Position numbers and translations under genes: made by a program. A stretch of DNA of 63,952 nt, filler included, from Neolecta irregularis DAH-3 (taxonomy: Eukaryota), in the NCBI GenBank assembly GCA_001929475.1. It is 14 parts of 14 records of this genome, joined end to end, with 100 filler letters (N's around TTAATTAATTAA, not from the genome) between each part and the next. Parts side by side here need not be neighbours in the genome. Positions count along the whole stretch, not along the records: positions 1 to 6,954 come from LXFE01002478.1; 13 more parts are not named here. One strand, given 5' to 3'. The stretch's first letter is position 1; every line of letters begins with the position of its first letter. This document shows, piece by piece, positions 1 to 63,952 of this stretch. The notes beneath the pieces are model-generated. The model did not search any database. It saw only the letters and a program-made list of their open reading frames with translations, and was not told where the DNA came from.

Positions 1-2355
1 CCCGCAGGCATCGACCTCTGTCTCTCCTGCTGTGACGCCGCCTGCCCTCTCCACGCCCCCGACCACGCCCGCGCATTCAACCACCCCCTCTTCCTCAACC
101 TCGCCCCCCACGGCACTACCCCCAAATGCTACTCCTGCACCTGCACCCTCGATCCTTCGATCCCCCCGCTCCCTTCCCTCATTACTGCAATTGTCAACGC
201 CCCCTCCTCCTCCCAAAAGGCTGCAGCCCACGCCTGGCACCACGAATTGCTCTCATGCTCCCACGTCCTCAATCTCCACCAGCAAGACTGCCCTCCCATT
301 GACCCAGGTACTACTTCCCTTCCTTGTTCCCCTGCCAATGAAAGATCTCCCAAAATGCACCGCATGCAATCTGACTAGAAACTTGTGGCTCTGTCTCACT
401 TGCGGCTCCATCGGCTGTGGTCGCCAGCAGTTTGCCGGTGATCCAGGAAACTCTCACCAGCTCCAGCACTACAACCTCTCCAGTCACCCAATCTCCGTCA
501 AACTAGGAAGTCTCTCTGCAGACTCCGACATCGGCATCTCCTCTCTCATATCATTGCTAATCTCAGACGTCTACTGCTATATATGTGGTGAAGAAAGGAC
601 AGACGACAACATTCACAACCATCTCCTTCATTTTCACATTGACCCAACACAACAAAACAAGACTGAAAAAACCTTGATTGAAAGGGTACCTCTTGCTATT
701 GATTAAACTACCCTCTAGCAAATCGAAGAGAACTTGAAATGGGATTTCTCAACAACCACAGATTCTGGCAACCAAATGCAACCAGTCTTTGGCCCTGGCC
801 TCACTGGCCTCAAAAACCTCGGAAACAGCTGCTACCTCGCTTCCGTTGTTCAGTGTCTCTTTTCTCTCCCCGCCTTTCAACAAAGGTGCATCATTCTCTT
901 ATTCCTGCTCATTTCAGATACTACGGTCCCAACCTCGAGCCCCTTGTCGAAATGAATCCAGCAGACTCGCTCGAATCTCAACTACGAAAAATGGCAGACG
1001 GTCTTTTATCCGGACGCTACTCAAAGAAAATAGATGACCATACGGATGCCCAGGAAGGTTTGCCTCCAACCATGTTTAAAACACTCGTCGGCCGTGGCCA
1101 TCCAGAATTTGCAACAAACAAACAACAGGCATGCTATTTTTCAACATTTACTAAATTCAGGATGCTGCTGAATTCCTCAGACATCTTTTCGACTTAATTT
1201 CAAAAGAAAGTTCTCTTGAAAATCCCGTGTCACAGTTTAAATTCATGTTGCAACGCCGATTGCAATGTCTTTGTTGCAAAAAGGTCCGTTATTCTATGGA
1301 AGAATCTGAAACTTGTGATTTAAATATTCCTGCGCATCGTTTGATGAACGACCTCGGAAAGAATAATCCCGAATTAAACATTCCTGAATCAAATAATCCC
1401 GAATTCGAATCAGTCACTCTTACAGAATGCCTCGATTTATTCACAGCAGACGAAATTATTAAAGATTATTCTTGCCCTGTTTGTGAAAAAAATGTCGATG
1501 CAGTCAGGCACGTTTTGGTTTGTAATGTCTAACATCGCAGGTCTGTTCGCTTTGCAACATTCCCAAAGGTTCTCGTCATCACTGCTCTAAAATTCGAAAT
1601 GACAAATGCTGGCCCCCAAAAAATTGGTATCGATAAACTTGGCAAGTTTAACCACTAGATGTACCAGTCGTCGTGCCACACGAGCAATTGTCTCTTGATA
1701 AATACCTAGGACAGGGCCTGCAACACGATGAAGAAACTCTTCCAGAGTCCGAGTCTTTTAAACCAAACCAAGAGGCCCTGGATACTCTCAAAGCCATGGG
1801 ATTCGGACAAGTAGCCTGCGAAAAAGCACTCTTGTCTACTGGAAATTCAGATGTCGAACAAGCTGCAAATTGGCTATTTGCCCATATTGAAGACTCGGAC
1901 CTGAATGAACCCCATGCAGTCTCCAAAGTAGATCCCCAGAAAAGGGAGAATTTGACGTCGATGGGTTTTACTTTAGCCCAATCTAATCGTGCTTTAAAAG
2001 AGACGGTACGATTTCGTATTCCATTATTGTTGACATCTAGTCTGGTGATGTGCAGCAAGCCGTTGAATGGCTTTTCAATCATGGTCACACGGTTCTTGAA
2101 GACGAAAAGGAACCCTCTATTAATCCGAACAGCTTTGGTTGTGCCAAACTCCCTGCAAATTATCGTTTGGACAGTATTGTGTGCCATAAAGGCCGGAATG
2201 TTCATACAGGACATTATGTATCCTTTATCAGGAAATATTTCCCCGAAACAAACAGTTTTCAATGGATACAATTCAACGACGAAAAAGTCGTTGTCGCGGA
2301 TAATGCAGAAGAGATGAGTAAATTCGCATACATTTACTTTTTCCGGCGGCAGTAG
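1..2355 (+). CDS. UBP14: Ubiquitin C-terminal hydrolase Ubp14/USP5 (isopeptidase T); 5'-truncated, about 8 introns
   Basis: zf-UBP (NLWLCLTCGSIGCGRQQF), Cys box GLKNLGNSCYLASVVQCLF, two UBA domains (LKAMGF...AANWLF; LTSMGF...AVEWLF), His box HKGRNVHTGHYV, FNDEKV, ending AYIYFFRRQ*. Confidence 0.95.
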
Positions 2356-2439
2356 ATTGTAATATATGAGACGTCATAAATGTGGTGGCGTGAAACGCCA
2401 AGTTATAGCCGGGGGCCTCCATCCGCTGATCTACACACT

Positions 2440-4776
2440 ATGACCATCGCCCCTAAGCTTCAGTTCTCACCCTTCGTCTCCTCCGTAGATCCTTTATTCT
2501 TTCTAGCCTTGTCAAAGCAGAAAATCGTAATATCTGTGGACTATATATCGTATCTAAACCGCTTAGGATTACGATCATCTCACTGAAACTACGCGTCGAA
2601 TACTCGGGCGATATCGTGCTCACGTCTCACAAAGCTACCATTGCCGTCTCGAAGTGAATGCGCGGGCTCTTTCCGAGGAACACGGGCAAGCGCCCCTGCT
2701 CTTGCCACCGCGTTGCTGACAACATCCAGTGGCGTGTCAAAGGACGACTGTATCGCAATTGGTACCATCAAAAACTTCAACACCATCGAAGCTTTTAAAT
2801 CTGTCGATAAGGCTGAATTCCTTGATGATGCTGGAGACGAAGTTTTGCAAAACATCGACGATGGAACGTCGCTAGCTGATCCTTCTACCCTGGTCTATTT
2901 CAAACTTCTCACATTCGCGGATCTTAAAAAGTATGTATATTATTCGTGGATCGCGGTTCCGGCTTTACTTATTGAACCTCTGTGGACTTTTGATGGACCT
3001 GATTCGCTCGAGGTTATTCCTCCTTCTGATTTATCATTTCGAGACACCGTTGAAGCGTGGAAACAAACTGTCGAGCAAAATCAATGGGGTTTCTTCCTCT
3101 TCAAACGCATTCGTAATGAATGGGTCATTGGAAAAGTTTGCGAATTACAAGACAAATTTTGGTCGAATACTGCTGCTAAAGATGTACCCTCCTTCCTCTG
3201 GTGGGTTTCAGTAACTTTAGCGAATGATTGGGTTTGTTGATCCTTCCAAGAAGGAATCGAATCCAGGATGGCCTTTACGAAATTTTCTCTCGTTGATCCG
3301 TCGACGTATTGATCTTCAGAGAATCAAAGTTTTGTGTTATCGAGATAGTCCACTATCTGAAACATCAAAAAGTGTGATTCTCCATTTGAGTATCGAAATT
3401 GGACTGGCCGACCCTCGTATGTCTCACCTTTACCTCCAAGACTCATTTTTGCTCCTCCAATTAGAACAGTTGGTTGGGAAAAGAATCAGCATGACAAGAT
3501 TGCTGCAAAAATCATGGATTTAGGTCCAATGATGGATCCTACAAAGTCTTGTTTATTTCTAATTGTAAAGCTAAATTGTTCTAGACTTTCAGATACTGCT
3601 GTCAATCTCAATTTGAAACTCATGCGTTGGAGAATTGCTCCGGATTTGAAATTGGAAAAGATTAAACGCACTCGTTGTCTTCTTGTCGGGGCTGGTACCC
3701 TTGGATGTAACATTGCTCGTGGTTTAATGGTACAAGTCGAAATGGAATGTACTAACCACACAGGGCTGGGGTGTACAACATATTACTTTTGTCGATAGTG
3801 CAAAGATCTCTTATTCAAATCCAGTCAGACAGTCTTTGTATACTTTTCAAGATTGTCTTGACGGAGGGAAACCCAAAGCTGTGCGAGCAGCGGACGCTCT
3901 ACGAGAAATTTACCCTGGAATAGTATACTCCTTTGAATGAATTACCGTTTACCGTTTTAGAGTAGCTCTGGAGTCGAATTGACTATTCCGATGCCTGGTC
4001 ATCCAATTATCAACGAACCTCGATTTCTCATAGATTTCAGACATCTGGAGGAACTTGTTAAAAACAGCGATGCGATATTTTTGTTGACCGACAGCCGGGA
4101 AAGTCGATGGCTTCTCTCTTTACTTGGCGCCGCTCACAACAAGCTCGTTATCAACGCGGCATTGGGGTTTGAGTCCTATCTAGTCATGCGTCACGGAGTT
4201 CCTTCGCAGTCTCCTCGACTTGGCTGCTATTTTTGTTCCGATATCGTTGCTCCAGCAGATGTAAAACCCATTTTTGCAATTCTTACGATATCTAGTCACT
4301 TCGAGACCGAGCTTTTGACCAAATGTGTACTGTTACAAGGCCTGGAGTTGCTTTTATCGCGTCTGGCCTTGCTGTAGAGTTGATGGTGTCTACCCTTCAA
4401 CATCCCGACGGGTATTTCCTTCCTTCTTGAATTCCAGTTTACTTTATCAAGTGTAAGAGCAGACGCATTGACTACTGAAGAGCATGGAAAATCTCCAAAA
4501 TCGTCGCTTGGTCTCGTTCCTCATCAGATTCGCGGATTCTTGGGGTCCTTTTCACAATTAACGTTGAGGGGACCGGCAAATGATCGTTGCTCTGCTTGTT
4601 CACCGGTCGTAATTGAAAAGTATGAAACTGAAGGATCTGCTTTTATTCTGCGAGTATTGGATACACCCGGCTACATTGAAGAAGTGTCTGGTCTTGCAGA
4701 GATTCAACGAAGCGCGGACGCCGCTGAACAAGTCACGATAATTGAAGATAGTGACGACAATGGGGAATTGAACTAG
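2440..4776 (+). CDS. ATG7: Autophagy E1-like enzyme Atg7, 9 introns
   Basis: [75 protein letters not shown]. Confidence 0.96.
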
Positions 4777-5105
4777 GTTTTTGTTGAAATATTGAGAAGT
4801 GGAACATTTTGATATATTGTAAAGAATGACAGTTTAAAAATATACCAGCCACTTTGAGGTTCTATTGATCAGCAATTAATATGTAGATGACTAGTATCGA
4901 GTCCAAGTCCATCTGCAAGAATGAATTTGACAGGGCGCTACGAACGAGCTTTGACCCTTCTCGACACCAGTATGAGATAGTCATTCTATTTCTTATTATC
5001 TGTTTGGCATAACTCATTAATGCAAGATACATCATACCACAAAGAATGGAAGAGTAACAAGCAACATCATCGCGGGAAGAGAAACACCAAATGAGCTTGC
5101 AAATT

Positions 5106-6954
5106 CTACTCGACTCCGCTGATATCCGCTGGATTTTTCTCGCCCTTGAGCCAACCGATCCAGGACCCCTTTCTTTGATAATCCTGTTCTGATTCTGAGA
5201 GCGAGAGACCGTCGTTTGATGCATTACTGTGGATCATTGTCGGCGATGCTACTTTTCGAGCGTGATCTTCAATTTTAGTTTCCGTGGCAAGGGCGAGGTT
5301 ACCTAGCGAATAATCCCACGCTGGGGAACCGGGAGCCCGCCCGATTATTGGAGTGCGCGCACCACTAGACTCAGATATATTCAAGACTAGGTGTACCTCG
5401 AGAATGCCGATGTCTTTGTAGTCTTTGTGGAAACGCCGACTCTATGGGCCAAGGAACGAGTTCGTTGCAACAAGGACAACGATCGTCGAGGGATTGCNNN
5501 NNNNNNNTGCTGGTAACGCCGACTCTATGGGCCAAGGAACGAGTTCGTTGCAACAAGGACAACGATCGTCGAGGGATTGCACTCGGTTCAGCGGGTGTGG
5601 TATTTGCGTGGGCTGCATTACCGTCACCTTCACGAGCAAGAACTGTTTCGAAGCCCTTATGCTCCAACAGTCGCTGGATGATTGTATTAATATACAATGC
5701 CATTCTCTTGTTCGTTTCCTGGAGAGATTGCATCTCTTTGTGCAATTCTGAGATCAGCGCCATTCACATATTGAGCAGACTTGAAATCTCGTCTGAGCCG
5801 GTGAAACTGTGTGCTTGTTCGAGTTCTGCAGCCAAATTTGTGGAATGACCTTCAGGGTCGGGCGAGTGACACGTAGGCGGCGTCTCTTCGTATGACTAGA
5901 CCTGAGCCGGGGTCCAGCGCTGCAATCCAACCTGCATAAAATCGCAATGCGAGATGTCTCCGCTCAGAGTCTATGGACATTAATGCTGGGAGCATGTTTG
6001 CAAACCTTTTCTGCAAGAAGCATTTGGAAACTCTCGTTTTCTTCGAGCAATCCAATGTTAGCGAGAAATGAGTGTCGAGTACCTAGCGTGATCGATTTTT
6101 ATGTCCATGATTTCTTCTTCCAAGCGGCGGTTGACTCGATCTCCGGCCTGGTCAACTTCAGCCAAACGGACATGAGCTTCTGCAAGCTCCAGTCGTAGAC
6201 CGTCGATCAAACGTTCCTTTGCGAGCAGGCTTTTTGCAAATCCGCTGGCAGGCAACTGGGGCGAAGAGGGAGTGGGAGCGAAATGGCCCGGGAGGTCTGG
6301 AGGATCGAGTTCCTTTGCAGAGACTTGAGATCAGCAAAGACGGGGCTGAAGGGTACGGGAGATTCTCAGGGGATTGTCGCACACGCTGGACCGTCTTGAA
6401 GAGGACCGTTCATTTATGATTTCCTTGAGTGCTCTCAGCTGCAGACCGAGTTCCTCGTCTTTGATCATCCACTCTTCCTTGTCTTTTGCGAATTCGGCGC
6501 GCTATGGAATGAACAAGGTTTGGATACAGAGTACCTCTGTCTCGATGGCCTTTTCGAGGTCTTTCTTTGCCCTGGCGAGGTCCTTGACTTCCGCGTCCAA
6601 TTGGAGGCCGCGGATATCTTTCTGGTTCACATGTTCTTCCAGTCTGACCTGGGCCGTCAAACTGGAGCCGAGCTCGACGCGCAAGGCTTTGATCTGCTTT
6701 TGCAGCTGGACTGAAGTGGATTCTGAACGAGCGAGCTGTCCTCTCAGATCGTCTAGTTCCTGCAACTTGAGAGCCTGATTGTCGTCCAAGTCTTCGTTCT
6801 TTCTGACTGCAGGTTTTGTGGGCTTGAGGGGAGAACCACCTTCTCTGACGGTGTGTCTGCGGGAGAGCGAGGACCCTGTTGGACTTGAGCCGAGTTGTGG
6901 CAGCACGGAAGCCCTTCTTGAGAGACTCTTTTGGGGAGTGAGATGCTTCGTAGC
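5106..6954 (-). CDS. Fungal coiled-coil protein with C-terminal Rab11-FIP RBD-like motif; 5'-truncated at contig end, 10-N gap near 5500
   Basis: Spliced heptad-rich frames (LQELDDLRGQLARSE; LIDGLRLELAEAHVRL; ARLLEENESFQMLLAEK; LQETNKRMALYINTIIQRLLEH) joined by short introns; 3' end uncertain because of the gap duplication. Confidence 0.7.
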
Positions 6955-7054
6955 NNNNNNNNNNNNNNNNNNNNNNNNNNNNNNNNNNNNNNNNNNNNTT
7001 AATTAATTAANNNNNNNNNNNNNNNNNNNNNNNNNNNNNNNNNNNNNNNNNNNN
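6955..7054. other. Artificial contig linker N-TTAATTAATTAA-N (first of 13)
   Basis: Same six-frame-stop 12-mer inside N runs at about 6999, 23787, 25112, 28951, 30187, 32539, 36341, 45338, 47037, 48717, 51894, 61429, 62881. Confidence 0.97.
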
Positions 7055-7511
7055 TGTGGGGCGGCAGCGATTGCGGGCGCGGAGCTGGGCGTGCTGCTGC
7101 TGTGGACGCTGGCTGCTCACCGCCCGCTGCCCGCGAACCCATGGCTGTACTCTTCGGTGGCAGCCTGGCGCAGCGTCGCCTTTGCGGTTGCCGATGCGCT
7201 ACTGGCCCTGGCCGTGCACTGCTGCTCGAGACGGGCGGGAGAGGCAGGAGAGATAGACGGGAGAGGCGGGCGAGCCAGGTAGGCGAGACAGGCAGGCGAA
7301 GCGGGCGAGAAGAGCGCGAGTAGGGTGAGATGAAAGAGGCTCGCGAGATGGACTGGCAAGGCGGGCAGGCGAGGCGGGCAGGCGAGGCCAGTAGGAAGGC
7401 GGTTACGGAGGAAAGAATTATTTAATATCACGTGAAAAAGCCCGTTTCGGCCCATGTACCGATGGGCCGGATATTTTTCTTGGCCCGGCCCATGGCCAAT
7501 TGCCAACACTG
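7055..7511. mobile_element. End of non-autonomous hAT-like DNA element (GGCG/AGGC low-complexity body, TCACGTGA, terminus CAACACTG)
   Basis: Ends in CAACACTG (reverse complement CAGTGTTG, a hAT-type TIR start); same subterminal layout at 8300-8393 and 27460-27587. Confidence 0.5.
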
Positions 7512-7589
7512 CCCCTTCCACTAGATATAGAACATTATTTTTGAAAACTCATCAAGTGTGAGGGCATAAGGTAGATCCTGATTTTCCAC

Positions 7590-8393
7590 AACACCCTCGC
7601 CTACCCGCCTTGCCTGCCTCTCCTATCTCTCGCGCCTCTTCAGCCTTGCGCACCTGTCTCGCGCCTCGCCAGGCTCTCCCAACTCGTGCTCCTGCCTCGC
7701 CCACCTTACGCTCCTCGCCTTCCTTGTCCCGCCCGCCTTTCCCGTCCCGTCTGTCCCTCCTTCCTCTCCCATCTCTCCCGTCCTCTCCTGTCCCGCCCGT
7801 GCCTCCTCTCCCGTCCCACCTCGCCCATCCCGCGCGTCCAGTCCCGCCTCGCCTACCCTGCGTGTCCCGTCCCCTTTCGTGTGTCCCGCGCTTCCTGTCC
7901 TGCCTCGCCCGTCCTTCCAATCTCGCGCCCCCCTCCCATCTCGAGCTCCTGTCTCGCCCGCCTCATGCCTGCCCATCCCGCCCACTCGTCCTGCCCGCCT
8001 TTCCCAACCCTTCCGTCCCTCCCATCTCGCCAATCTCACCCGCCCGTCTCTCCAGCCCATCCCACCCACCTCACATGCCTCGCCCGCCCATCTCTCCCGC
8101 CTCTCAAACATCACACTATGGATAAGAAAGGGGAATGGAGAGGGACACAAGTACTAGAAAGTATATCATGTAGAAATCTTTATGAACATATCAATTCTTC
8201 GAGTCTGGGAATGATCACTATTCTATAATCTACTACTACAAAAGTCTAGATAGTATCTCAATGTATAACACTTTGGCATCAGAAAGCTCATATTAGGGAA
8301 ATGGTAGTCACATGATATGCATGGACCGTCCATGGATTGGGCCTGACCCTCAGAAAAGCCCATGGGCAGGACTTTGGTTCATCTGCAACACTG
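7590..8393. mobile_element. hAT-like non-autonomous element: C/T-rich low-complexity tract plus terminus CAACACTG
   Basis: CCCGCC/CTCGCC-rich repeat 7590-8105; TCACATGA, CCATGG repeats and CAACACTG at 8386-8393. Confidence 0.45.
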
Positions 8394-8674: not shown

Positions 8675-11600
8675 ATGGACAATTTGATCACTTATATTGT
8701 AAATGAAATAACCTATGAGGGACCAAACGGTAAGCTATTTTCGATTCTTTACCGGTGGTGGTGGAATGGTGCAACAGCGCCCGCTCAATTTGGATTCTCC
8801 ACAAAGAGAACTCTTGCAATAAAGTTCTAGAAGAATTAAAATCTTCTTTGTCGTATTTCGAACCGTTGCCGGAAACTTTGTCCGGGGAAGTACGTTATAT
8901 AGAGAGGGCCGACGGTTCGAATCTTGGGTATGCTTACTTTTCTGTAGGATGTTTGCTTTCGCAACTGTGGTCATTTATATCGAATTACACCGAAAAGCAC
9001 AACCAGGCTAATTCAGTTTGGGACCTTGTTATACAGCATCATCTTGATCACACATCTAGGTTCTGGATGATGCACTCCGAAGTCTCATTTGGAAATATCT
9101 CCTTCAGGAAGATAGTGTTTTGGTCAAAAAGCGAGACCAATCATCTTTATTTGACGTACATGTGCTCGGCGAGATCCAGTTGACCGTATTAGAAAACGAG
9201 CAGTCATGTTTCGAACTATGCCAACTTGATCGGGAAGGATCACGATACGCAGGTTTTAATTGCGGAAGAACGTCGATGGATAATTCTGACCGGCCATGGA
9301 GTCGACCATACCAAGGTAATTTCACAACCTGCAAAAGTGACGAGGGTAATCTGTATAGGTTTCTCCTTTAGCATTTGCTATTCTCGAATGTGCAACCTAT
9401 GGACGTAGCCAGGGAATGCCGCAAACAAAGATTGCAGCTATGACAGGTCAAGAACCTCGAAGCTTTCCTAGCAGAGTTAAAGCTCTTGTACATGCAGGAT
9501 TAATGTACACTACTGAGTCTCTGCTATTTGACTGAAACTCCAGTCGCAAGGAAAAGTGTATTGCGGACGGAGCCAAAACCTTTCGTTTGACACATACGAA
9601 ATTTGCTCCCCCGAAAGCAGTTACAAAGCAGCTAATTGATACTGCCAGAGTAGAGTGTGGCATCATCGAGAAGTTGGGTGTTGCACCAGATCATACCTTG
9701 CCTTACAGGGAAGTCCGGGATAGTCTCGTATGTTCCACTTTTAATCAGTGCTTGACATATATTTTAGGGCTACGAAGGCCCCAAATGGTATCGCGTATTC
9801 GCTGCAAAGATTCGAGAATGGGAAGAGGAACGCCTCGTTCTCCGATATTTTATTGAAGGAGGCAAAAAGCAAATCAGAATTAAATATCTCAGATTAGGAA
9901 TACCTTTTGAGAACGCCCTACACACGATTTTGGAACGCCAACGACGAGGATATACACAAGCTATCTTATCTGACAGCGAAGATGAGAGAGACCTCGGCGA
10001 GGATGACCTTGAGGATGACCTCGACAATGTCAATGATCACATCAAAGTTTTATACGATGATGTTATTCGCGAATTTCCTATTGAAGTACAACTGTTCAAC
10101 TTTATTGCTGCATCTGGAACAGAAACGGTGTCTACTAATGCATGAGGTCTCTTTTCATAAGCCTGTGTAATATTCTAGGATATCATACAACGATTAAATT
10201 TTAACTTTAATCGGCGGAGTGTCGGTCAAACTCTTGAAAGGATGACATTTGATCCGAAAAAACCTCCGATTCCTCAATGCGCAGATCGCGTTTTATTTCG
10301 AGAGATTGACGGTCATGGAAAAACCTCATTTTATCGATATGTTGTGGCTGAACATCACGCGAACTATAGAAAGAGAATCGGTCTTGATTCCAAAGGTGCT
10401 GGAGACCTTCCTTCCGTAGTCGGAGAATTTAGAATTCCTCCGATAAGCTTGCTTCCTCCACAAGAGCCAGTACGGACTATGGACCACGAGTTGAAAGGTT
10501 CCGGAGTGCACGATTATAGCAAACTGACTGATAGTAAAATCAGTCCGAGGAAGACCGCGTAAGACAGTAAAAGCTCTTGATGTGTCTAAAGACTCTCATC
10601 CTCGTTCAGATGGCTTGGAGACTGTTAAGAAGAAGGGTCGTCCTCGCAAACACCTAGAGAGCGAACAGGGTGATGCATTTCTGCAGTCTAGAAAACGAGT
10701 GTTGGCGAAGAATTCGGAAAAAATGTTGCCGTTGCGAAAACGTTTAAAGGTTGGAAGTAAAGAGATAGTGGAGCACTCTGGGGTTGATCCTGATATTCAG
10801 ACTTCTCAAAACACGCAAAATCTCGAAAAGCAAGGTCCTGTTGCAGAACGCAGAAAGGCAGGGGAAAATCCAACGACTGAATCAAAAACGGGAATGCTAA
10901 AGTCATACCTAATAGATTCAAGCGAAATCGTCAATAGCAGGGATTCTACTTGCCATAAAGCCGATAACTTGATGTCGAGGGTTATCGAACGTTCCCGAAT
11001 CAAGTCCCTATCAAAGTGCTATAGTTCTTCGGAAGCCGAATCTTTAACCTTACCTGGTCTTCAAATTCCATTTACCTCGGCTTCCGGGGATCCTTATTCT
11101 GCCATGGTTAGTGATAGTGTCCAATGTCTCGGACATGTTGATAACTGTTGCGATTCTCAGTTCCAGTCTTCACAGGATTTCAGGAATAATTCTGCACAGA
11201 ATCAAAGTACTGATGGGTTTGTATCAAACAGTTACACATCTGTCACTCAACAACAGCTCCAGACAGATCATTTCTCAGAATTACCCAACCTTTCGTTTTC
11301 GACGAATGGTTCCCTGAATGCAACCGCAATGAAGGAGGACTCAATCGCCGATATTTCCTTTGTAGCATCACGAGCTGCTGCCAACCCAGTGTCGATTGAC
11401 CCAGCTCTAATGATGGATGATCCAGCCCCTTTCTTGGAAATATGCAACGAACCTGTTGTTGACATCACCGAGAATACCGGACTTGTCAAAAGCTGCAATC
11501 CAAGAAGTAACAAACTCAGGCACTCAGTTCAAATGATTCATCGACAACAAACGATCAAGGAAATTCTGGACTCCCAAAGCGGTTTAGTTGAAGGAGGGCA

Positions 11601-23032: not shown

Positions 23033-23842
23033 CTGGTGTATGCCGTTGACAATGGCGATAAAGGCGGGCAGCCAGGGGTTCAATTTGCTCAAAGTTAAAC
23101 TTTTGTTTTTCTTTCTTTTGATGGGTTGTTCGGCGATGATAGAAATGGCTTGACTTGCAAATATATATCAAATAGAGTTTTGCTCCTTCCTCACCCCAGC
23201 CTGCTATATAATACATTTCTAGTTCTTCGCCAAGGTTACTCAGAGTAAAGGTGTTGCATCAACAGCGTAGCTTCCCCTCCCTTTATGGGCGACAAAACAG
23301 CGACATCAGTGCTTGACTCTAAATTATTTCATCATCGCAACCTTTCTTTTTCCCATTGACAAATCCATAGTTTCTTTTTCAAAAACACAGATCATGTAAC
23401 TGAATTGGATATACCAATTAAACCACACAATCCAAGCTTCCATAAAAAAAAACAACCCCACAATCACAAGAGTAAGCCCCATCGAGTTTTAAAACTGCAT
23501 GACTATCACTCAGGACGAAAAAGGCCGCCCCAAGGGATGCTCATCTCTTTGCGTGCAAGGGGAGGACAAGCCGTTTTTACACGGCAGTCTTGGGACTACT
23601 ATATGTCCGGGGACTTTCCCCCGAGCTTTCTTCAAATTTTCCCTCCGAAATTGGGGGAAAAAAGCGTGGGTATGCTCGGATGCAGTCCTTTGTGTTTGTG
23701 ATGGGTGTTAAGTGGAAGAAGTTTTCAACATGCCTGTTGTTANNNNNNNNNNNNNNNNNNNNNNNNNNNNNNNNNNNNNNNNNNNNTTAATTAATTAANN
23801 NNNNNNNNNNNNNNNNNNNNNNNNNNNNNNNNNNNNNNNNNN

Positions 23843-25067
23843 ATTTTATGTACCTCAAGGAGTTGCAAATGACCTTATAAGGTCTTTCAGTGCTGATAAA
23901 TTCAAGAGTAAGGTTGTTAAATGGATAACTACCAGAAATCATCCTCTACGAGAGGTGGAAACTCCTGAATTTCATGAAATGATAGCAGCTGCCAATATTG
24001 ATGCCAAACCTCATATTTTTGCGAATCACCAATCAATTCGAGATCATATTCTCTCTGAATACCACTGCAACAAAGGGATAATCACTGAACATCTAGCACA
24101 AGCTCAATCAAAGATTCATATTACATTTGATAGCTGGACTACTCGTAGTGGACAGCATGCTCTCACTGGTATATGTGTCCACTACCTTGATGATCAGGGT
24201 CAAGTTCGAGACTATTTGCTTGCCCTACCAGAGCAGCTAGGACAGCATTTTGGTATTAACTATGCTGAAGTTATTGGCAATGTAATTGCTGAGTATAACC
24301 TCATGGATCGTATTGGCTACTTTGTTTCTGATAATGCCAGAAACAATGACACCTGTTTAAACCACCTTGCTGTGGAATTTGGCTTCAATAAAAAGGAGTG
24401 ACGGCTCCGTTGTGCAGCTCATATCCTCAACCTTGTTGCTCAATCTATTCTATGGGGAAAAGACAAAGATGCTTTTGACAATGAGAATAAGAATATACCT
24501 GTAAGCTAATCCTATCAGTAATACAAATAACTTTATATCTAATTCTATATAGGATGAGGAGAAATTCTTAAAGGAGTGGCAAAAGGAAGGCCCACTTGGT
24601 ACACTTATTGATATCCTGTTTTCAATCAATACCCCATTCAAGCATGAGCTTTTCAATAGTTACCAGGTTGCTGAAAATAATCTACTACCGAAGAATGAAT
24701 TTATACCTCTCAACATAATTAAACCAGTCAAAACTAGATGGAATGCATTTCTTGATTCTTTTGAACAAGCAATCCAACTACGTGGCCCTATCGATTCATT
24801 TGTGCAATATCATATCAATAAGTGGCAGAGAGAAACAGCTTCATTACGGGTGAAAGGAAAGACAATCCCCAAACCATCGCTTTATATTCAACTTGGAGGC
24901 CTTAACTCGTATGATTGGGATGTTATTAGCAACTATATTGCAATCCTACAACTACTCAAGGAAGCTACCAAGAAACTTGAAGCCAGAGGCAGAGCTGGTC
25001 GTCATGGAGCTATCTGGGAGGTTATTCCAATAATGGATTGGCTGCTAAGGACATTTGAAGAAGGAGT
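23843..25067 (+). mobile_element. hAT-family transposase, partial and inactivated
   Basis: IHITFDSWTT, GYFVSDNARNND, RCAAHILNLVAQ (CxxH), KTRWNA, LKEATKKLE; in-frame TGA at 24399-24401; one intron about 24501-24552; truncated by linkers. Confidence 0.92.
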
Positions 25068-25253
25068 NNNNNNNNNNNNNNNNNNNNNNNNNNNNNNNNN
25101 NNNNNNNNNNNTTAATTAATTAANNNNNNNNNNNNNNNNNNNNNNNNNNNNNNNNNNNNNNNNNNNNTTCCTACCACCTACCTATAACTCTATATTTCAT
25201 GTTGGACAACTCCAGGGGACGTAATCAGGCCCCAAGATCCGACAGGCTGTCGG

Positions 25254-42390: not shown

Positions 42391-44413
42391 TAGCTGTACA
42401 TTTTGGGGGTGCGTTTGTATTTTGGTCTGGCGTTTTGTGTAGATAGATATCATTGTAATAAATCACTGTTGGGGTGGAAAGTAAAGCAATAATGATCCAA
42501 ATCTTTGAAATTTTCTGTTTGTATGAATGGGTTAGTTAGTTAGTCACTCACACCTATCATCGCTATCCACCCCAAACCCCCAATTCATCTCAAAAACACT
42601 TAAGATTGAAAACATGGATGATGAAGAAAGAAGTCAACAAAATGCTGATTAAAATTTTGGTACTAATTAATAGCCTATTAACAATAGGATCTAAACCCAG
42701 CGCTGCGAATACCCCACCCCACATTATCCACCTCATGCCCGGGGTTAGGGTGCCGCGGTTGGGTATTCGGAGCACTGATTGAACCTGCACCTGAAGACGC
42801 CATGAGATTTCTCCTCTCATGCATGCCATAACCGTTCGGCCATGCTGCCTCTGAATATATTTCAGTAACACAGGCAAAAAAGAGCAATACCAGTAAAACG
42901 GGTCTCAAAGATGGTCAAAGGGTATCCCACTTAAGAAGGCACAACACCAAACTAGTTTATTCAAATTAGAACGCATCCTTATTTTGATTGTCAAATCTAG
43001 CTTCAAGGATCTAACCTAATGCAAACAAAATCAAAAACCAATCACTGCTATTGAGTAGAATCTGTCTCAAGCTTTGAAATCCGGTAGGGAGGGTAGAAGA
43101 GTGTCGATAGTTATAAATTGTATAGATAAAGTTTGTGCGTTGGTTAGTAATAAATTGTTCAAGTTGTCAAGATGAAAGAAAAGAGGGGCAGAAGACTATC
43201 CCAAATACTTGCAGAGTCCGTCATACTTATGACTAGCAAGTGGGTACAGGCGGACGATCGTTGCACCATTGCCGGAGGGTGAGAATGCTTCCTCTAAAAC
43301 CAGGCGCCCATCTTTATATACATTTCTATCTAATGTCTTATTTCTTTCTCTGCCACTTGCTGTATTGGTGTGGGTATATCCGGTAATAGCGGGGATATAC
43401 CCTTACCATCCTTTTAACTATGATCCTCTTCAGATGTCACTCAGCCATTGAAATGTATTAAACGCTGAAGTAGCGAAGCAATAGAGCTTCTCGTATCCCG
43501 CCCTGTGATGTTCCATACGCAAACAAGTAACTCATCTCTGTGCGCCTCTCTAGTTAATCCGGGTTTATACTGCGACAAGATTTGACTTTTGACCAGCAAA
43601 ACAATGACTGGCCAAGAGGAAAAACAAATTGTCACACCTCGTAAATGGGAGATATTCATCATTCTAAAGACTATAGCTCTCGTCACAAATTTCTTGATCA
43701 GNNNNNNNNNNGGGCGTTAGTGCAGCTTTGGATAACCGCACAATAAGTCCTTTTGTATAAAGACCTAGTGGGTTTACTGAACTAATACTTGAAAATAAAT
43801 ATCTAGTCCACATGTGGGATGATACGGTCGAAGACTGATTGAGCGATAGCGGGGAAGCAGGGTGAGGATGCTCGAGCAATCCGAGTTCCCTCTTTTTCCT
43901 CGATGTTTCCAGAATCCTAAAACCTCAATGACGCTACAACTACAGCCTGTGTGTTAACAAGCATTATCCAACCGTCCTACAAATGTGCAGATACAGGACT
44001 AATAGATTTACAAGTATGAGCCACGTCATTGTAGAAAATCAAGGAAGAGAAAACTCATCAGATAACCGGAAAAACCCACATGTACCAGTTTCTTGCGACA
44101 AGTGTTTGTGATGGCCCAGTACTATGCAATGTCCTCGTTCTGGCGGCTATGTTTGGGAGCGCGTATTGGGTGATATTGGCACAGAGGTATTGACAAAAGG
44201 GGCCGATGGAGACTGAGGCAAGGATAGTGAGAGGTAGCGGATAGCTAGCTGTATTGAAGGAGAGCAAAGGCCGATTCTTTGCAGTGAAATTGTAGAACTT
44301 GGTTTGGTCAATGATATTAACGAGCAGCAAACAGTTATTCATTGCAATATTCAGGAGTTTGCATATGGCTTGCTAATTATACATTGACATTCTCGATCTG
44401 CGCGCTATTTTGC

Positions 44414-56299: not shown

Positions 56300-59200
56300 T
56301 TAGAGATAAGAAATAGATCTATCTAGTTCTAACATATCGTCCAGCAACCGTGATAAGGGGATCCCCAGTTTTTTGGCAACTGTTTGTTTCTTGTCTTCCG
56401 AGAGTTGCAGAAAGTCCAAGAGGAGTTGCCCATCTAGAATCCCTTTCATTATGTTGCGATCTTTCTGCTCTTTCATAGGTGCCCTAAATAGTCAAGCCAG
56501 GTCTCAATATGGGAACTCACCGATACGATCTTGGATTTAGCCCAGCTAGATGATCCGCAGAATTGACCATCAAGTTATGCAAGAGATATAACCGACGATA
56601 TTTGCGCTCCGATACAGGGCACAATGAATGGATAGAGCCATCAACGGCAACGTATATATCAAGATACTGATATGGATCGTTTTCGGGAGCTTCCTCGCCT
56701 TCCTCCACTGGTTTCCTCTCAAGAGGCATCTTGACCGTCATGGTTTGTTCGACCAAAATAGTTCCTGTATTGAAATCAGCCTTTGGCACGAGTCGATGAC
56801 CCGATAAAGAATTTGGATCTGACTTGTCAATAATGACAGATCCGAGAACCTACTCTCTGGGTCGTATTGTAAAAGTCGTAATACTCCATCTGCATCGCTA
56901 ACCGAGATATAAGCGGAGCCATTGTCAACGAGGAAATCTGCACAAACTACTGATAGTTTGTGTACATCCTTTCCAAAGACAGTAAGCTTATAAGGATCGA
57001 ACTATGAAGAATCAGAGGTAACTGGATAGTTGGACTTTACCGTAAACCCGACAAGTATCACACTATCATCGAAATCACCAATCAAAATAAGGTTCCCCAA
57101 ACACTTGACTGTCTTGGTGTACTTTCTGAGGTCTAGAAAGGCCACTCCGACGAGGTGATCACCATCTTCCAAACCACGAATTATCATCTACTCATGAAGC
57201 ACCTCAAAAGATTTAAGCTTACTTTTTGTCCCTGTATTGATAACAAATATCCACTGATATCACACAAAGAGGTGATTGCACCTTTAACTTCTTCTGCATA
57301 GATTAATTTTAACTTAAGATTTGTCTCCGGGCGACCCGGTTCTGGCACAACCCCGATGGTCTCAAAAAGATATAACTTTCCGCGCATCGCCAAATCCTCA
57401 CCTCTAAAGACACCGGTCCCGCATGCAATATATGGTTTTCTGGCTTTGCTATGTTCTGAGATTTCTAGATTGACAGATTTAACGCACAACGCATATTCAT
57501 TTGACGCGAATTCGTATTTGTCAATGGTTGACCAGTTGGCCGGTGATATTAGTTCCAGAGATCCTTGAAGAGCTGCTGGCAAGAAAAGTTGATCGTTTTC
57601 TCGCTGTCAACGTTGCTACCTTTGTTGACGTACCTTCACGATCGGCTATTGGCTGTCCCTCTTCGTCATGGAGTTCAAACGAGACTTCAGTCGATGAAGA
57701 TAACACATAAACCTCTTGCGACGAATGATACGTTATAGCATGGACATTGCGCCCGAGTGATATCTTCCTTGTAGTCATTTGATTGTCAAACCTGAAGTCT
57801 GAAGGGATTTGAGCTATCCGCATGACATCCTTAAGATCAGTAGAGATGGATGAGAATTCTTTCGTTACTTTGTCATCTGAATATATCACTCCGTGGGGAG
57901 ACTCCGCCGTATGGCATGGAGAAAGCCCACGAACATGTTTACTTGCAAAGGGAAACAAGCGCGGTATTGATTTGGTGTCCTTCAATATCCAATGTGATTC
58001 CCGACCCGCAATAAATACAGCATGATAGCCCGAGACATCATTGATGTTCAAAAATCGTGATCCTTTCGATATCGAATCGGATGAATAGCCTTTCTCGACC
58101 CCGCTCGTCAGATGATCGCCTTCGTCTGGCAAGGGTGAACGGGTTGAACGAGAATTCCGAACCTTACGAAAGGCAATTTCTTTTTCCGATGAGCTTGGAT
58201 TCGAATACAGGGACCTAGAGAACGGCTTGTAGATTATAATGTCATTTGCTTCCGTTCTGACCTACGCGAAGTCAGCGGCTCCTTCTAGGGCAAAAATAAG
58301 TACCAAAAAGAAAAGCTCTTTGTTCCCCACTGGTCCCAAAGGTGACAGCGATATTTCAGCAATCAAGGTGTTTCTTCTATTCTCAATATCCATTGCGTCG
58401 CTATCATGCGAAATAGTCAAAAGGGAAGGAAAGATGGCGAAGTCATTGAATTTTCCAATCAACTTCCATTCAGGAAGGGAGACGATCTTCATATCAACTG
58501 AAGAATGAAAGAAGTCACAAACCAAGAGAACCCCAGAATCATCTATTGAAAGACAGAGATGGGTTAAGTCAGCAGTCGAATTCGACAAATTACTGACATT
58601 TAATTCGTTCACAGATATATTAGTTATGCGATTCTCCTCTGTATCTGCCCCCTGTGGTGCTACATTATTTGCCGTACCAGATGCAGAGCATTTTGCAGTC
58701 AGACCGATACTAGATAAATCTTGAGTCGAAGCGGCATAAAGGCACCCAGTAATAGTTCTTCCGGGCTATGATGTAAGCGAGAGAATGAAGTCAACTGATA
58801 TACGAAAAGTCCTTGTGGCTTCTCAACTTCTTCCAACTCCTTAGACAAGAAATTAGCAATAAAAATTGCAGTATTCCCATTCTCAAGGATCAGGAATACA
58901 TATGGATCAGCAACACTTGCGAAAACGATGTTAACTTCCACATCGTTTTCCAGATCATAGAGCGGTAATAGCTGGGCTAGACGAAGGTCTGCTTAATCAG
59001 TATATGCAGATATGCACACGCGTATCTGGATCGTAGAGACGAATATCATTCTGGCATACTTGAACAATACGGGTGTCGTTGAGTATGGAGCTTACAGCCA
59101 ATGTTGAACCAGCAGAATCAAATTCCGAAGCCGTGACCTCCTCAAAAGTCTGTCCAATTGTGAATACAAGACTATTTTCCCGTGTGGATATTATTAGATA

Positions 59201-61641: not shown

Positions 61642-62535
61642 ATGGACAATGATTTTTTTGGGAATATAATGAGCCAGGTGGCAAGCACCATTGGCTCTAG
61701 CATTTCTTCCGTTATGGAGCAGGTAGCTACCCAGCTGAACGAATGGCACATGGATTATATGGCAGCTATGGAGCAGCGATTTTCAGCTGCATTCACCATA
61801 GCTGTAAAAGACACTGCATTGGCAGTGCAAAAGGCAGCTCAGATACCTAAGCTACCAAAGTTCTCTGGAAAAGAGGATGTGAATGACTGGTGGTTCTCAG
61901 TCATGGAAAGTTTACAAGGCTACACTCTAAATGCAGAAGAAACCAGATGAATAATTTTCAACTCCTTAGTGGGATATGCCAAGGAGTGGTGGAGAGACAA
62001 TAAAACCACTATTGAAGATGCTGCATCACCTGAAGCATTAATTGATTTATTCTGGGCTGAGTTTATACCTAAGGGGTACCTATTTAAACAACTTGTCTCT
62101 TTCGATGAGTTAAAAGTTAAGGGATCAATTATGGATTTCATTACTATATTCCCAAGGTTGAAACTACATGTTAGTTACCAAGAGTTAATGTTTGTTCACC
62201 AGTTCATTAAGTCATTTTTGACAGTTCCGGCCTGCCAATTGAAGCTAATTGACGGGGATCGTAAAACTGTGTCAGACTCAATTAGAATCACCAGGGAATT
62301 CGAGTTAAAGAAAGTGTTTAGCTCTTTGACTAGGGAGACCACACCTATGGAGGTGGACAATGTCTCTAGACAAAAACCTACCTGCTATTCCTGTGGCAAG
62401 ATTGGACACAAAGCAAACAAGTGTCGTAAAAATCTTAAGACTAAGAGAGTTAATAATGTAGAGTCAGGAAACACAAAGGGGATTTGCCAAGAGGAAGACA
62501 CTGTAATCGTAATTTCTTGCTTACAATACTACTGA
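61642..62535 (+). mobile_element. Ty3/Gypsy gag remnant
   Basis: LPKFSGKEDVNDW, LVGYAKEWW, PMEVD, zinc knuckle CYSCGKIGHKANKC; in-frame TGA at 61948-61950. Confidence 0.88.
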
Positions 62536-62936
62536 AGCCTTTGGAATTCAGAATAACTTGCTACCGTTGTCAATGAAATACCTCTTGGGTGTTTTGCTGA
62601 ACCAGGTTATGTGAAGTTAACCAAACTTACTGAACCTGATATACTTTTGCAGGACTCAATACCTGACACAACCTATAAGAGCACTCAGATAACTTAACAG
62701 CAACCAGACTCAAAAGATCCTACTATAGAACTGTAAGGATTGACTAGCTAGGTGTGTAGCTCAGTGTGAGGGTTACACACACAGTCACATGTTAGTCACA
62801 AGCCAAGGCATGTGACACTACACCCCTGTCATGTATNNNNNNNNNNNNNNNNNNNNNNNNNNNNNNNNNNNNNNNNNNNNTTAATTAATTAANNNNNNNN
62901 NNNNNNNNNNNNNNNNNNNNNNNNNNNNNNNNNNNN

Positions 62937-63952
62937 ATGTCAAAGAGTAAAGTCAAGTACTCAGCCGCCAGCAGGATTTCTTTCATCATTACCAGTACCC
63001 GAGTCCAAATTTGATGAAATCGCAATGGACTTCATTGGTCCAATGAAGGATTCAAAGGGATATAATGGGATGCTGGTAGTGACTGATCGACTTTCTGGTC
63101 TGGTAATAATCGAACCAATTAAAATGACGATATCTGCAGCTGAAGTGGCAAAATGGCTTTGGCAAAATTGGTACTGTAGATATGGACTACCCAAGTCCAT
63201 CGTTTCGGATCGAGACCCTAGGTTTACAGGACAATTGTGGAAAGAACTGCATTGAATGATTGGAGTCAATCTAAAGATGAGTACGACCTTTCACCCTCAA
63301 ACGGATGGATGGTCAGAGCGATCGAAAAACAATTATACAGATACTCCGGACTTGTGTAGATGAAACACAAGAGAATTGGTCAGACTATGTTCGTTCAACG
63401 GAATTTTGCATTATTAACTCTCTCAACGATTCAACAGGATTTACGCCATTCGAGTTGGTTTATGGTTGCAAGCCAAGAGTACTGCCCAGTATACTGCCAA
63501 CAGATTCTAGCACACCGAAGGCCCAAGAGATTGCAGAAAACATGAAGATTTATTTGGAGGTCGCAAGAGATACTTTAGTGATCGCTAAGGCTAAGCAAGC
63601 AATTCATGCTAATAGGAGAAGAAGAGATCATATTAAATATGATATCGGCGACAGAGTTCTGTTAAGCAGTGAGAATTTTCGGAAAGCCATGGCAAAAGAA
63701 GGAAAATCAGCCAAGCTACTACCACGTTAGATCGGACCCTATCGAGTTATAGAAGCCTGGCTAGATACTCATACCTATAAACTCGAATTGCCGGTAGAGA
63801 TGAGTCTCCGTCACCCAGTTTTTCATGCTAAACTTCTGAAACCGTTTAACGATAATGACTTGGAAGAATACCCAGACCGGGCGTTTGAGCAACCAGTAAT
63901 CCTAGAAAGTTATGAAGATGAGCATATTATTGAACAAATACTTATGCATCGC
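62937..63952 (+). mobile_element. Ty3/Gypsy pol integrase remnant
   Basis: IAMDFIGP, VVTDRLS, YGLPKSIVSDRDPRF, STTFHPQTDG, TGFTPFELVYG, GPY/F module KLLPR*IGPY, HPVFHA; stops at 63253 and 63728 and a frameshift near 63305. Confidence 0.93.

Follow-up and report, generated by a model that had tools for sequence, protein, structure and literature searches.

A 31-nucleotide GT-GG intron in a conserved Neolecta irregularis coiled-coil gene

Can an intron whose last two bases are GG rather than AG be removed precisely to give a productive mRNA, and what would then mark its 3′ end? The question is raised by a short segment within a coiled-coil gene of Neolecta irregularis DAH-3, on the minus strand of the 63,952-nt stretch of DNA (filler included) whose whole length we refer to as the window. 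The window consists of separate public contigs linked by 44 N, TTAATTAATTAA and a further 44 N, with joins at 6955-7054, 23743-23842 and 13 further places; genes on either side of a join are unlinked, and the coiled-coil gene belongs to the first of these contigs (1..6954). The original prediction placed an intron with GT and GG ends at minus-strand positions 6082..6052, and the window sequence agrees with it in letters and coordinates: the segment reads GTACTCGACACTCATTTCTCGCTAACATTGG (31 nt), comes after ...CACGCTAG and before ATTGCTCG..., and has ATTGCTCGAAG directly 3′ of it. The main text of the Neolecta genome paper (PMC5309816) contains no occurrence of intron, splice, RNA-seq or transcriptome, and among the matches listed no literature on Neolecta splice sites was found by title or abstract.

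Evidence on the use of this segment comes from two runs of a single study, X1 and X2, both aligned to positions 5510-6950. X2 consists of contigs, not reads (20,248 contigs, 11.1 Mb in total), and is labelled “DNA?” by guess. One of its contigs (1691 nt, depth 224.7) aligns with no mismatches in seven pieces separated by six joints; read on the minus strand, five of these joints skip segments with GT..AG ends, and the sixth skips the GT..GG segment exactly, joining 6083 to 6051. The GG is thus used in this contig in preference to the downstream AAG or GAG, as had been proposed. Because six intron-sized pieces are gone at splice-like borders, the contig is cDNA-like despite its label, and we infer its RNA origin from these six precise skips. 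Chance resemblance to an intron is not at issue for the 31-nt segment, since it is absent from this transcript-like contig.

Together with the reading frame, the X2 contig defines the structure of the gene on the minus strand. The first exon (6535..6954, 140 codons) starts where the genomic contig starts, leaving the coding sequence 5′-partial; it is followed by a 33-nt GT-AG intron (6502..6534), an exon (6357..6501), a second 33-nt GT-AG intron (6324..6356, with the branch motif CTGAT and its acceptor at +7, counted from the putative branch A to the terminal G) and an exon ending in ...KIDHA plus AG (6083..6323). Beyond the GT-GG intron come a 46-nt exon (6006..6051; A followed by LLEENESFQMLLAEK), a 35-nt GT-AG intron (5971..6005), a 39-nt exon (5932..5970), a 36-nt GT-AG intron (5896..5931), an exon (5781..5895), a 33-nt GT-AG intron (5748..5780; CTGAT, +6), and finally an exon that carries the conserved C-terminal block and extends past the aligned stretch (5510..5747). 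With the six skips removed, a single open frame of 415 codons runs from the contig end to a 10-N gap at 5498-5507, and removal of the 31 nt keeps the frame as predicted, with ...IDHA, the arginine codon AG|A and LLEENESFQMLLAEK read in succession. The 10-N assembly gap lies in the 3′ part of the gene, and about 66 nt are duplicated on both sides of it (flanks 5430-5600); this duplication probably arose in assembly, distorting the final part of the coding sequence.

Many non-canonical junctions called from RNA data are artefactual, as illustrated by FlyBase, where more than 500 exceptional calls compare with 79 accepted (PMC4528330), and the 31-nt skip could likewise reflect a fault of library or assembly, through template switching by reverse transcriptase or contig collapse. 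Several properties of the skip weigh against such an origin. Its ends (CC..AC on the plus strand) share 1 nt, which is too short for template switching, and the 46 nt aligned on the shorter side are the whole of the next exon; it starts at a GT in the GTAC[T/C]C context common to two neighbouring introns, ends 6 nt past a perfect CTAAC, restores the frame exactly inside an invariant protein block, and shares its contig with five clean GT-AG joints. An artefact is, in our judgement, highly improbable. That GG is tolerated, as the original prediction held, is accordingly true of the assembled, high-depth isoform; support for the junction comes from one contig of one study, and contigs conceal minor isoforms, of which the frame-shifted ones (acceptors TG at +5 and AG at +17) would fall to nonsense-mediated decay.

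A different doubt concerns the genomic letters themselves. If the transcript came from an AG-bearing allele or nucleus, splicing would be canonical, and the assembly would show GG through polymorphism or through an error in its consensus. X1 bears on this directly: an unspliced X1 contig of 6375 nt spans 5510-6525 with two differences from the window and no gaps, and it reads GG at 6052/6053; an error peculiar to the consensus of this assembly therefore does not account for the GG, although X1 possibly originates from the campaign that produced the assembly and is not fully independent of it. With the GG joint of the X2 contig, both tests named as able to refute the original prediction have thus come out in its favour. 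A second X1 contig adds one further difference. All three differences (6187, 6196 and 6595) are synonymous in the spliced frame, and X1 therefore represents a second haplotype or isolate, GG-bearing like the window. The material is evidently polymorphic (3 of about 1330 aligned bases), and contigs drop rare variants, which could hide a minor AG allele; yet both DNA versions have GG despite their three differences at other sites, and the X2 contig equals the window haplotype exactly over its seven pieces, such that an AG allele would require a third haplotype with identical exons. We regard this explanation as very unlikely.

The segment also looks like an intron in its signals. Its 5′ splice site is a GT (6081..6082, minus strand) in the context AG|GTACTC, and a donor start of the form GTAC[T/C]C is found in three of the six introns of the gene. 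A branch-site motif, GCTAAC, occupies 6062..6057, with the putative branch A at 6058 (its second A); here as in all introns that we measured, branch points were assigned by motif. Six bases follow this A up to and including the terminal G, the distance given in the original prediction, and the last of them form the terminal dinucleotide GG (6052..6053; trinucleotide TGG), for which X1 has the same letters. Considered as a U2-type intron, the segment shows precise removal with exon ligation (given the RNA origin of X2), a 5′ GT, and a motif of the fungal CTRAY type shortly before its 3′ end; what it does not have is a terminal AG, in the window or in X1. GT..GG ends, otherwise U2-like signals and transcript support are hence found together, the combination that characterises the rare U2-like GT-GG class.

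The register of the joint is ambiguous by 1 nt, and cleavage one base over, giving an intron at 6083..6053 with GG..TG ends, would produce the same mRNA. This register would depart from the rules at both ends, as against one departure for GT..GG; it would forgo the donor context AG|GTACTC that the GT register has in common with the introns starting at 6534 and 6356, and a GT start is found in all 19 other introns examined. We consider it very unlikely. Minor-spliceosome introns have varied 3′ ends and short branch-to-acceptor spacing, features that would fit the segment if it were of U12 type. The U12 donor consensus is RTATCCTT, which the 5′ end of the segment, GTACTCGA, matches at only 4 of 8 positions, and on this motif U12-type identity was rejected; moreover, the five neighbouring introns are of the same size and look, and all are plain GT-AG. 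The minor spliceosome is not known from ascomycetes, and a U12 identity is scarcely credible here. An intron of the HAC1/XBP1 type, cut by Ire1, was also considered. In such introns both cut sites lie in short stem-loops with the loop motif CNG|NNG; the 5′ cut context at our locus is CTAG|GTA, with T and not C at position -3, and this candidate was rejected by motif.

Which other acceptors lay within reach can be read from the sequence past the branch A, where the G-ending dinucleotides are TG (+5), GG (+6), TG (+10), CG (+14), AG (+17), CG (+23), AG (+25) and AG (+27); no AG occurs from +1 to +16. Of these positions only GG at +6 and AG at +27 keep the frame. The three downstream AGs (within 6031..6042, minus strand), which end at 6041 (+17), 6033 (+25) and 6031 (+27), are all unused in the X2 contig; the first two are out of phase and the third is in phase. 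Use of the AG ending at 6031 would make a 52-nt intron and remove seven codons of the invariant block, rather than the six residues stated in the original prediction.

The consequence for gene annotation is substantial. The gene in the window is 100% identical to the public model NEOLI_004429 (Neolecta irregularis DAH-3), whose product ends in ...KIDHARYSTLISR, having read into the intron and stopped at the TAA within GCTAAC. The model stops short because the intron ends in GG and not in AG, and it lacks at least 146 residues compared with the spliced frame, including the two most conserved blocks of the family. A HMMER search with this 276-residue public model as query returned 150 proteins at E<=0.001, 44 of them at E<=1e-10, and in the long homologs (about 580-840 aa) the match to it breaks off at residue 269/270, where the exon ends. 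The protein computed from the spliced frame was then aligned with 30 HMMER matches, the first by rank among those of at least 440 aa. In this alignment, of the kind that had been called for across the junction, none of the 30 homologs has a gap at the splice junction, which falls inside the block that is best conserved in the family, N-A-R-L-M-E-D-N-E-S-F-Q-L-L-L. The residues of the Neolecta protein agree with this block, and E272, N274, S276 and Q278 are identical in 30/30. The second conserved block is encoded by later exons. The family is a coiled-coil one, spread across ascomycetes; its named members are hypothetical proteins of Pezizomycotina, and the automatic UniRef name is “M protein, serotype 2.1”. 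Pfam assigned no family to the four exons submitted, the first exon giving two sub-threshold coiled-coil matches only, and none to four homologs either; a word-index search with the C-terminal exon gave no match.

We next consider the distance between branch point and acceptor, which the original prediction took to be the same in the GG intron as in the canonical introns of this DNA. The motif cited in its support, GCTAAT followed by CTCAG (about 556-566, plus strand), lies inside an intron that is itself predicted; the claim does hold for the transcript-supported intron 5780..5748 (minus strand), where CTGAT and CTCAG give the same 6 nt. Across the coiled-coil gene, the five GT-AG introns (33-36 nt) have distances of 8, 7, 9, 7 and 6 nt, a range of +6 to +9, compared with 6 nt in the GG intron. 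For a second gene, the public cft1 protein, 100% identical to Neolecta irregularis DAH-3 cft1, was mapped back to the window. It gives 15 exons, and all 14 annotated introns are GT-AG, 34-46 nt long, with branch-to-acceptor distances of 11, 3 (7 if another TTAAT is taken), 9, 7, 20, 8, 7, 10, 7, 7, 7, 10, 8 and 8 nt, where the branch is ambiguous in introns 2 and 5. Over the 20 introns of the two genes, of which 19 are canonical and supply the basis for the spacing, the acceptor sits approximately 6-11 nt from the branch (mostly 7-11 in cft1, with intron 5 an outlier). The GG intron, at 31 nt and +6, is the shortest of the 20 and fits these local mini-introns of about 31-46 nt and +6 to +11. 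Selection of the GG by its distance from the branch, as originally suggested, is consistent with this local anatomy, in which +6 is the position of the GG and no AG comes before +17.

Two features of cft1 deserve mention in their own right. In three of its 14 introns (introns 10, 11 and 13; 57633..57600, 57222..57188 and 56853..56819, minus strand), an AG located 3-4 nt past the motif-assigned branch A is skipped and an AG at +7 or +8 is used, which hints at a minimum branch-to-acceptor distance. In intron 5 (59019..58977, minus strand), the public model has 43 nt and an acceptor 20 nt after CTGAT, passing over in-frame AGs at +5 and +8; at this site 12/12 aligned orthologs carry 4-5 residues that the public model leaves out, in agreement with an acceptor at +5 or +8. 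Judged from these alignments and the local sequence, the public acceptor of intron 5 is probably an annotation error, and the true intron would be 28 or 31 nt long.

Taking these lines together, we consider it highly likely that 6082..6052 is an ordinary U2-type mini-intron that ends in GG and is removed precisely to yield a productive mRNA, which encodes a coiled-coil protein conserved in ascomycetes. Under this explanation the 5′ end would be the GT and the branch point the second A of GCTAAC. The GG would be taken because it ends in G and lies at the customary short spacing, +6, in a setting where acceptors sit approximately 6-11 nt from the branch. Between its terminal G and the first base of the intron the canonical contact could still form, and the short tether may make up for the contact that an A at position -2 would have provided. 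As to origin, a tolerated AG-to-GG mutation would be the simplest account.

The correction of the gene is itself of value, with NEOLI_004429 regaining at least 146 residues, and gene finders that require AG will make the same error elsewhere in the Neolecta genome. In an ab initio survey of the window we sorted ORF-rescuing introns by terminal dinucleotide, a noisy procedure in which AG was hardly enriched (at the middle threshold, for instance, AG made up 38 of 324 candidates); of 114 candidate clusters, 73 contained none with AG, the majority of them evidently spurious. The cluster at 6082..6052 has the top flanking coding scores among the clusters without an AG candidate. Two more GT...TGG candidates with CTRAY motifs and coding-like flanks, at 42633-42660 and 11362-11416 (both plus strand), may be due to chance. 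Elsewhere in the window, 7100-8230 is GC-rich and of low complexity, with long open frames in all six frames, and two long ORFs, 23799-25119 and 61951-63730 (both plus strand), resemble, from their translations, a transposase and a gag/pol-integrase of a retroelement; these transposase- and retroelement-like ORFs include a zinc-knuckle-like CYSCGKIGHKANKC.

GT-GG introns are rare but documented in animals and fungi, and 6082..6052 is a further case. Because such introns are already on record in both, the general picture of splicing is unchanged, and the GG intron by itself demonstrates no new mechanism. In animals, the best comparison is human BANP, which has a U2-like GT-GG intron that is conserved in vertebrates and has AG in fish (Parada et al. 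2014, PMC4176328). There, too, the GG acceptor serves the normal product, and it is derived from AG, as the Neolecta acceptor would be. It differs in that the BANP intron is of ordinary vertebrate size, with no short branch-to-acceptor tether described for it, and in that its GG is conserved across species, whereas the Neolecta GG is known from two haplotypes of one species. Drosophila melanogaster has six annotated GT-GG introns, five of which have RNA-seq junctions (FlyBase, PMC4528330, Table 3), and five of the six have a similar canonical alternative nearby. In Neolecta, by contrast, 11 nt separate the GG from the closest AG, which would break the frame, and it is the GG junction that yields the conserved protein.

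Among fungi, 38 GT-GG introns (0.041%) are listed for Ganoderma lingzhi (PMC11590231, Table 1), and the curated annotation of Fusarium graminearum contains GT-GG introns (PMC3577648). These resemble our case in being fungal, RNA-supported GT-GG introns overlooked by automatic gene prediction; they differ in belonging to other fungal groups and in that the sections of the two reports dealing with them do not give their size as about 31-46 nt and treat neither the spacing nor a mechanism. A change of position -2 with the final G kept is also seen in the TG 3′ splice sites of U2-dependent human introns (Szafranski et al. 2007, PMC2374985), which are alternatives beside an AG, unlike the GG in Neolecta.

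The most instructive comparison in terms of mechanism is with Saccharomyces cerevisiae. Yeast without Prp18 uses UGG and other B-G acceptors and sites whose distance to the branch is below 10 nt; Prp18 and Slu7 can be dispensed with at short branch-to-acceptor distances, and contact of the terminal G with the first intron base aids the docking of such sites (Roy et al. 2023, PMC10711555). It is tempting to generalise from one locus to the whole organism, and to suppose that the Neolecta spliceosome is generally relaxed at acceptor position -2, with GG and TG both used, the cause being a tether of approximately 6-11 nt on which the ruler and proofreading steps of Prp18/Slu7 type described in yeast would not be needed. 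We offer this only as a tentative and rather doubtful extension. Were it true, Neolecta would be a natural counterpart of prp18-deleted yeast, and many productive B-G acceptors, as well as many truncated public gene models, would be expected in its genome.

The GG intron itself is a clean natural case, with a UGG 6 nt from a perfect branch site, a productive mRNA and no nearby AG competitor, and from studies of Prp18 in yeast this combination would be expected to be permissive. Since UGG near a branch site here gives productive mRNA, Neolecta could be used to test to what extent proximity can replace the A of AG. Yeast and Neolecta are alike in the UGG trinucleotide, the very short branch-to-acceptor distance and the retention of the final G, the shortest distance in yeast being 7 nt and that of the GG intron, counted alike, 6 nt; they differ in that the non-YAG sites described for yeast (PMC10711555) are minor, mostly unproductive and dependent on the mutant, whereas the GG site of wild Neolecta gives a productive mRNA.
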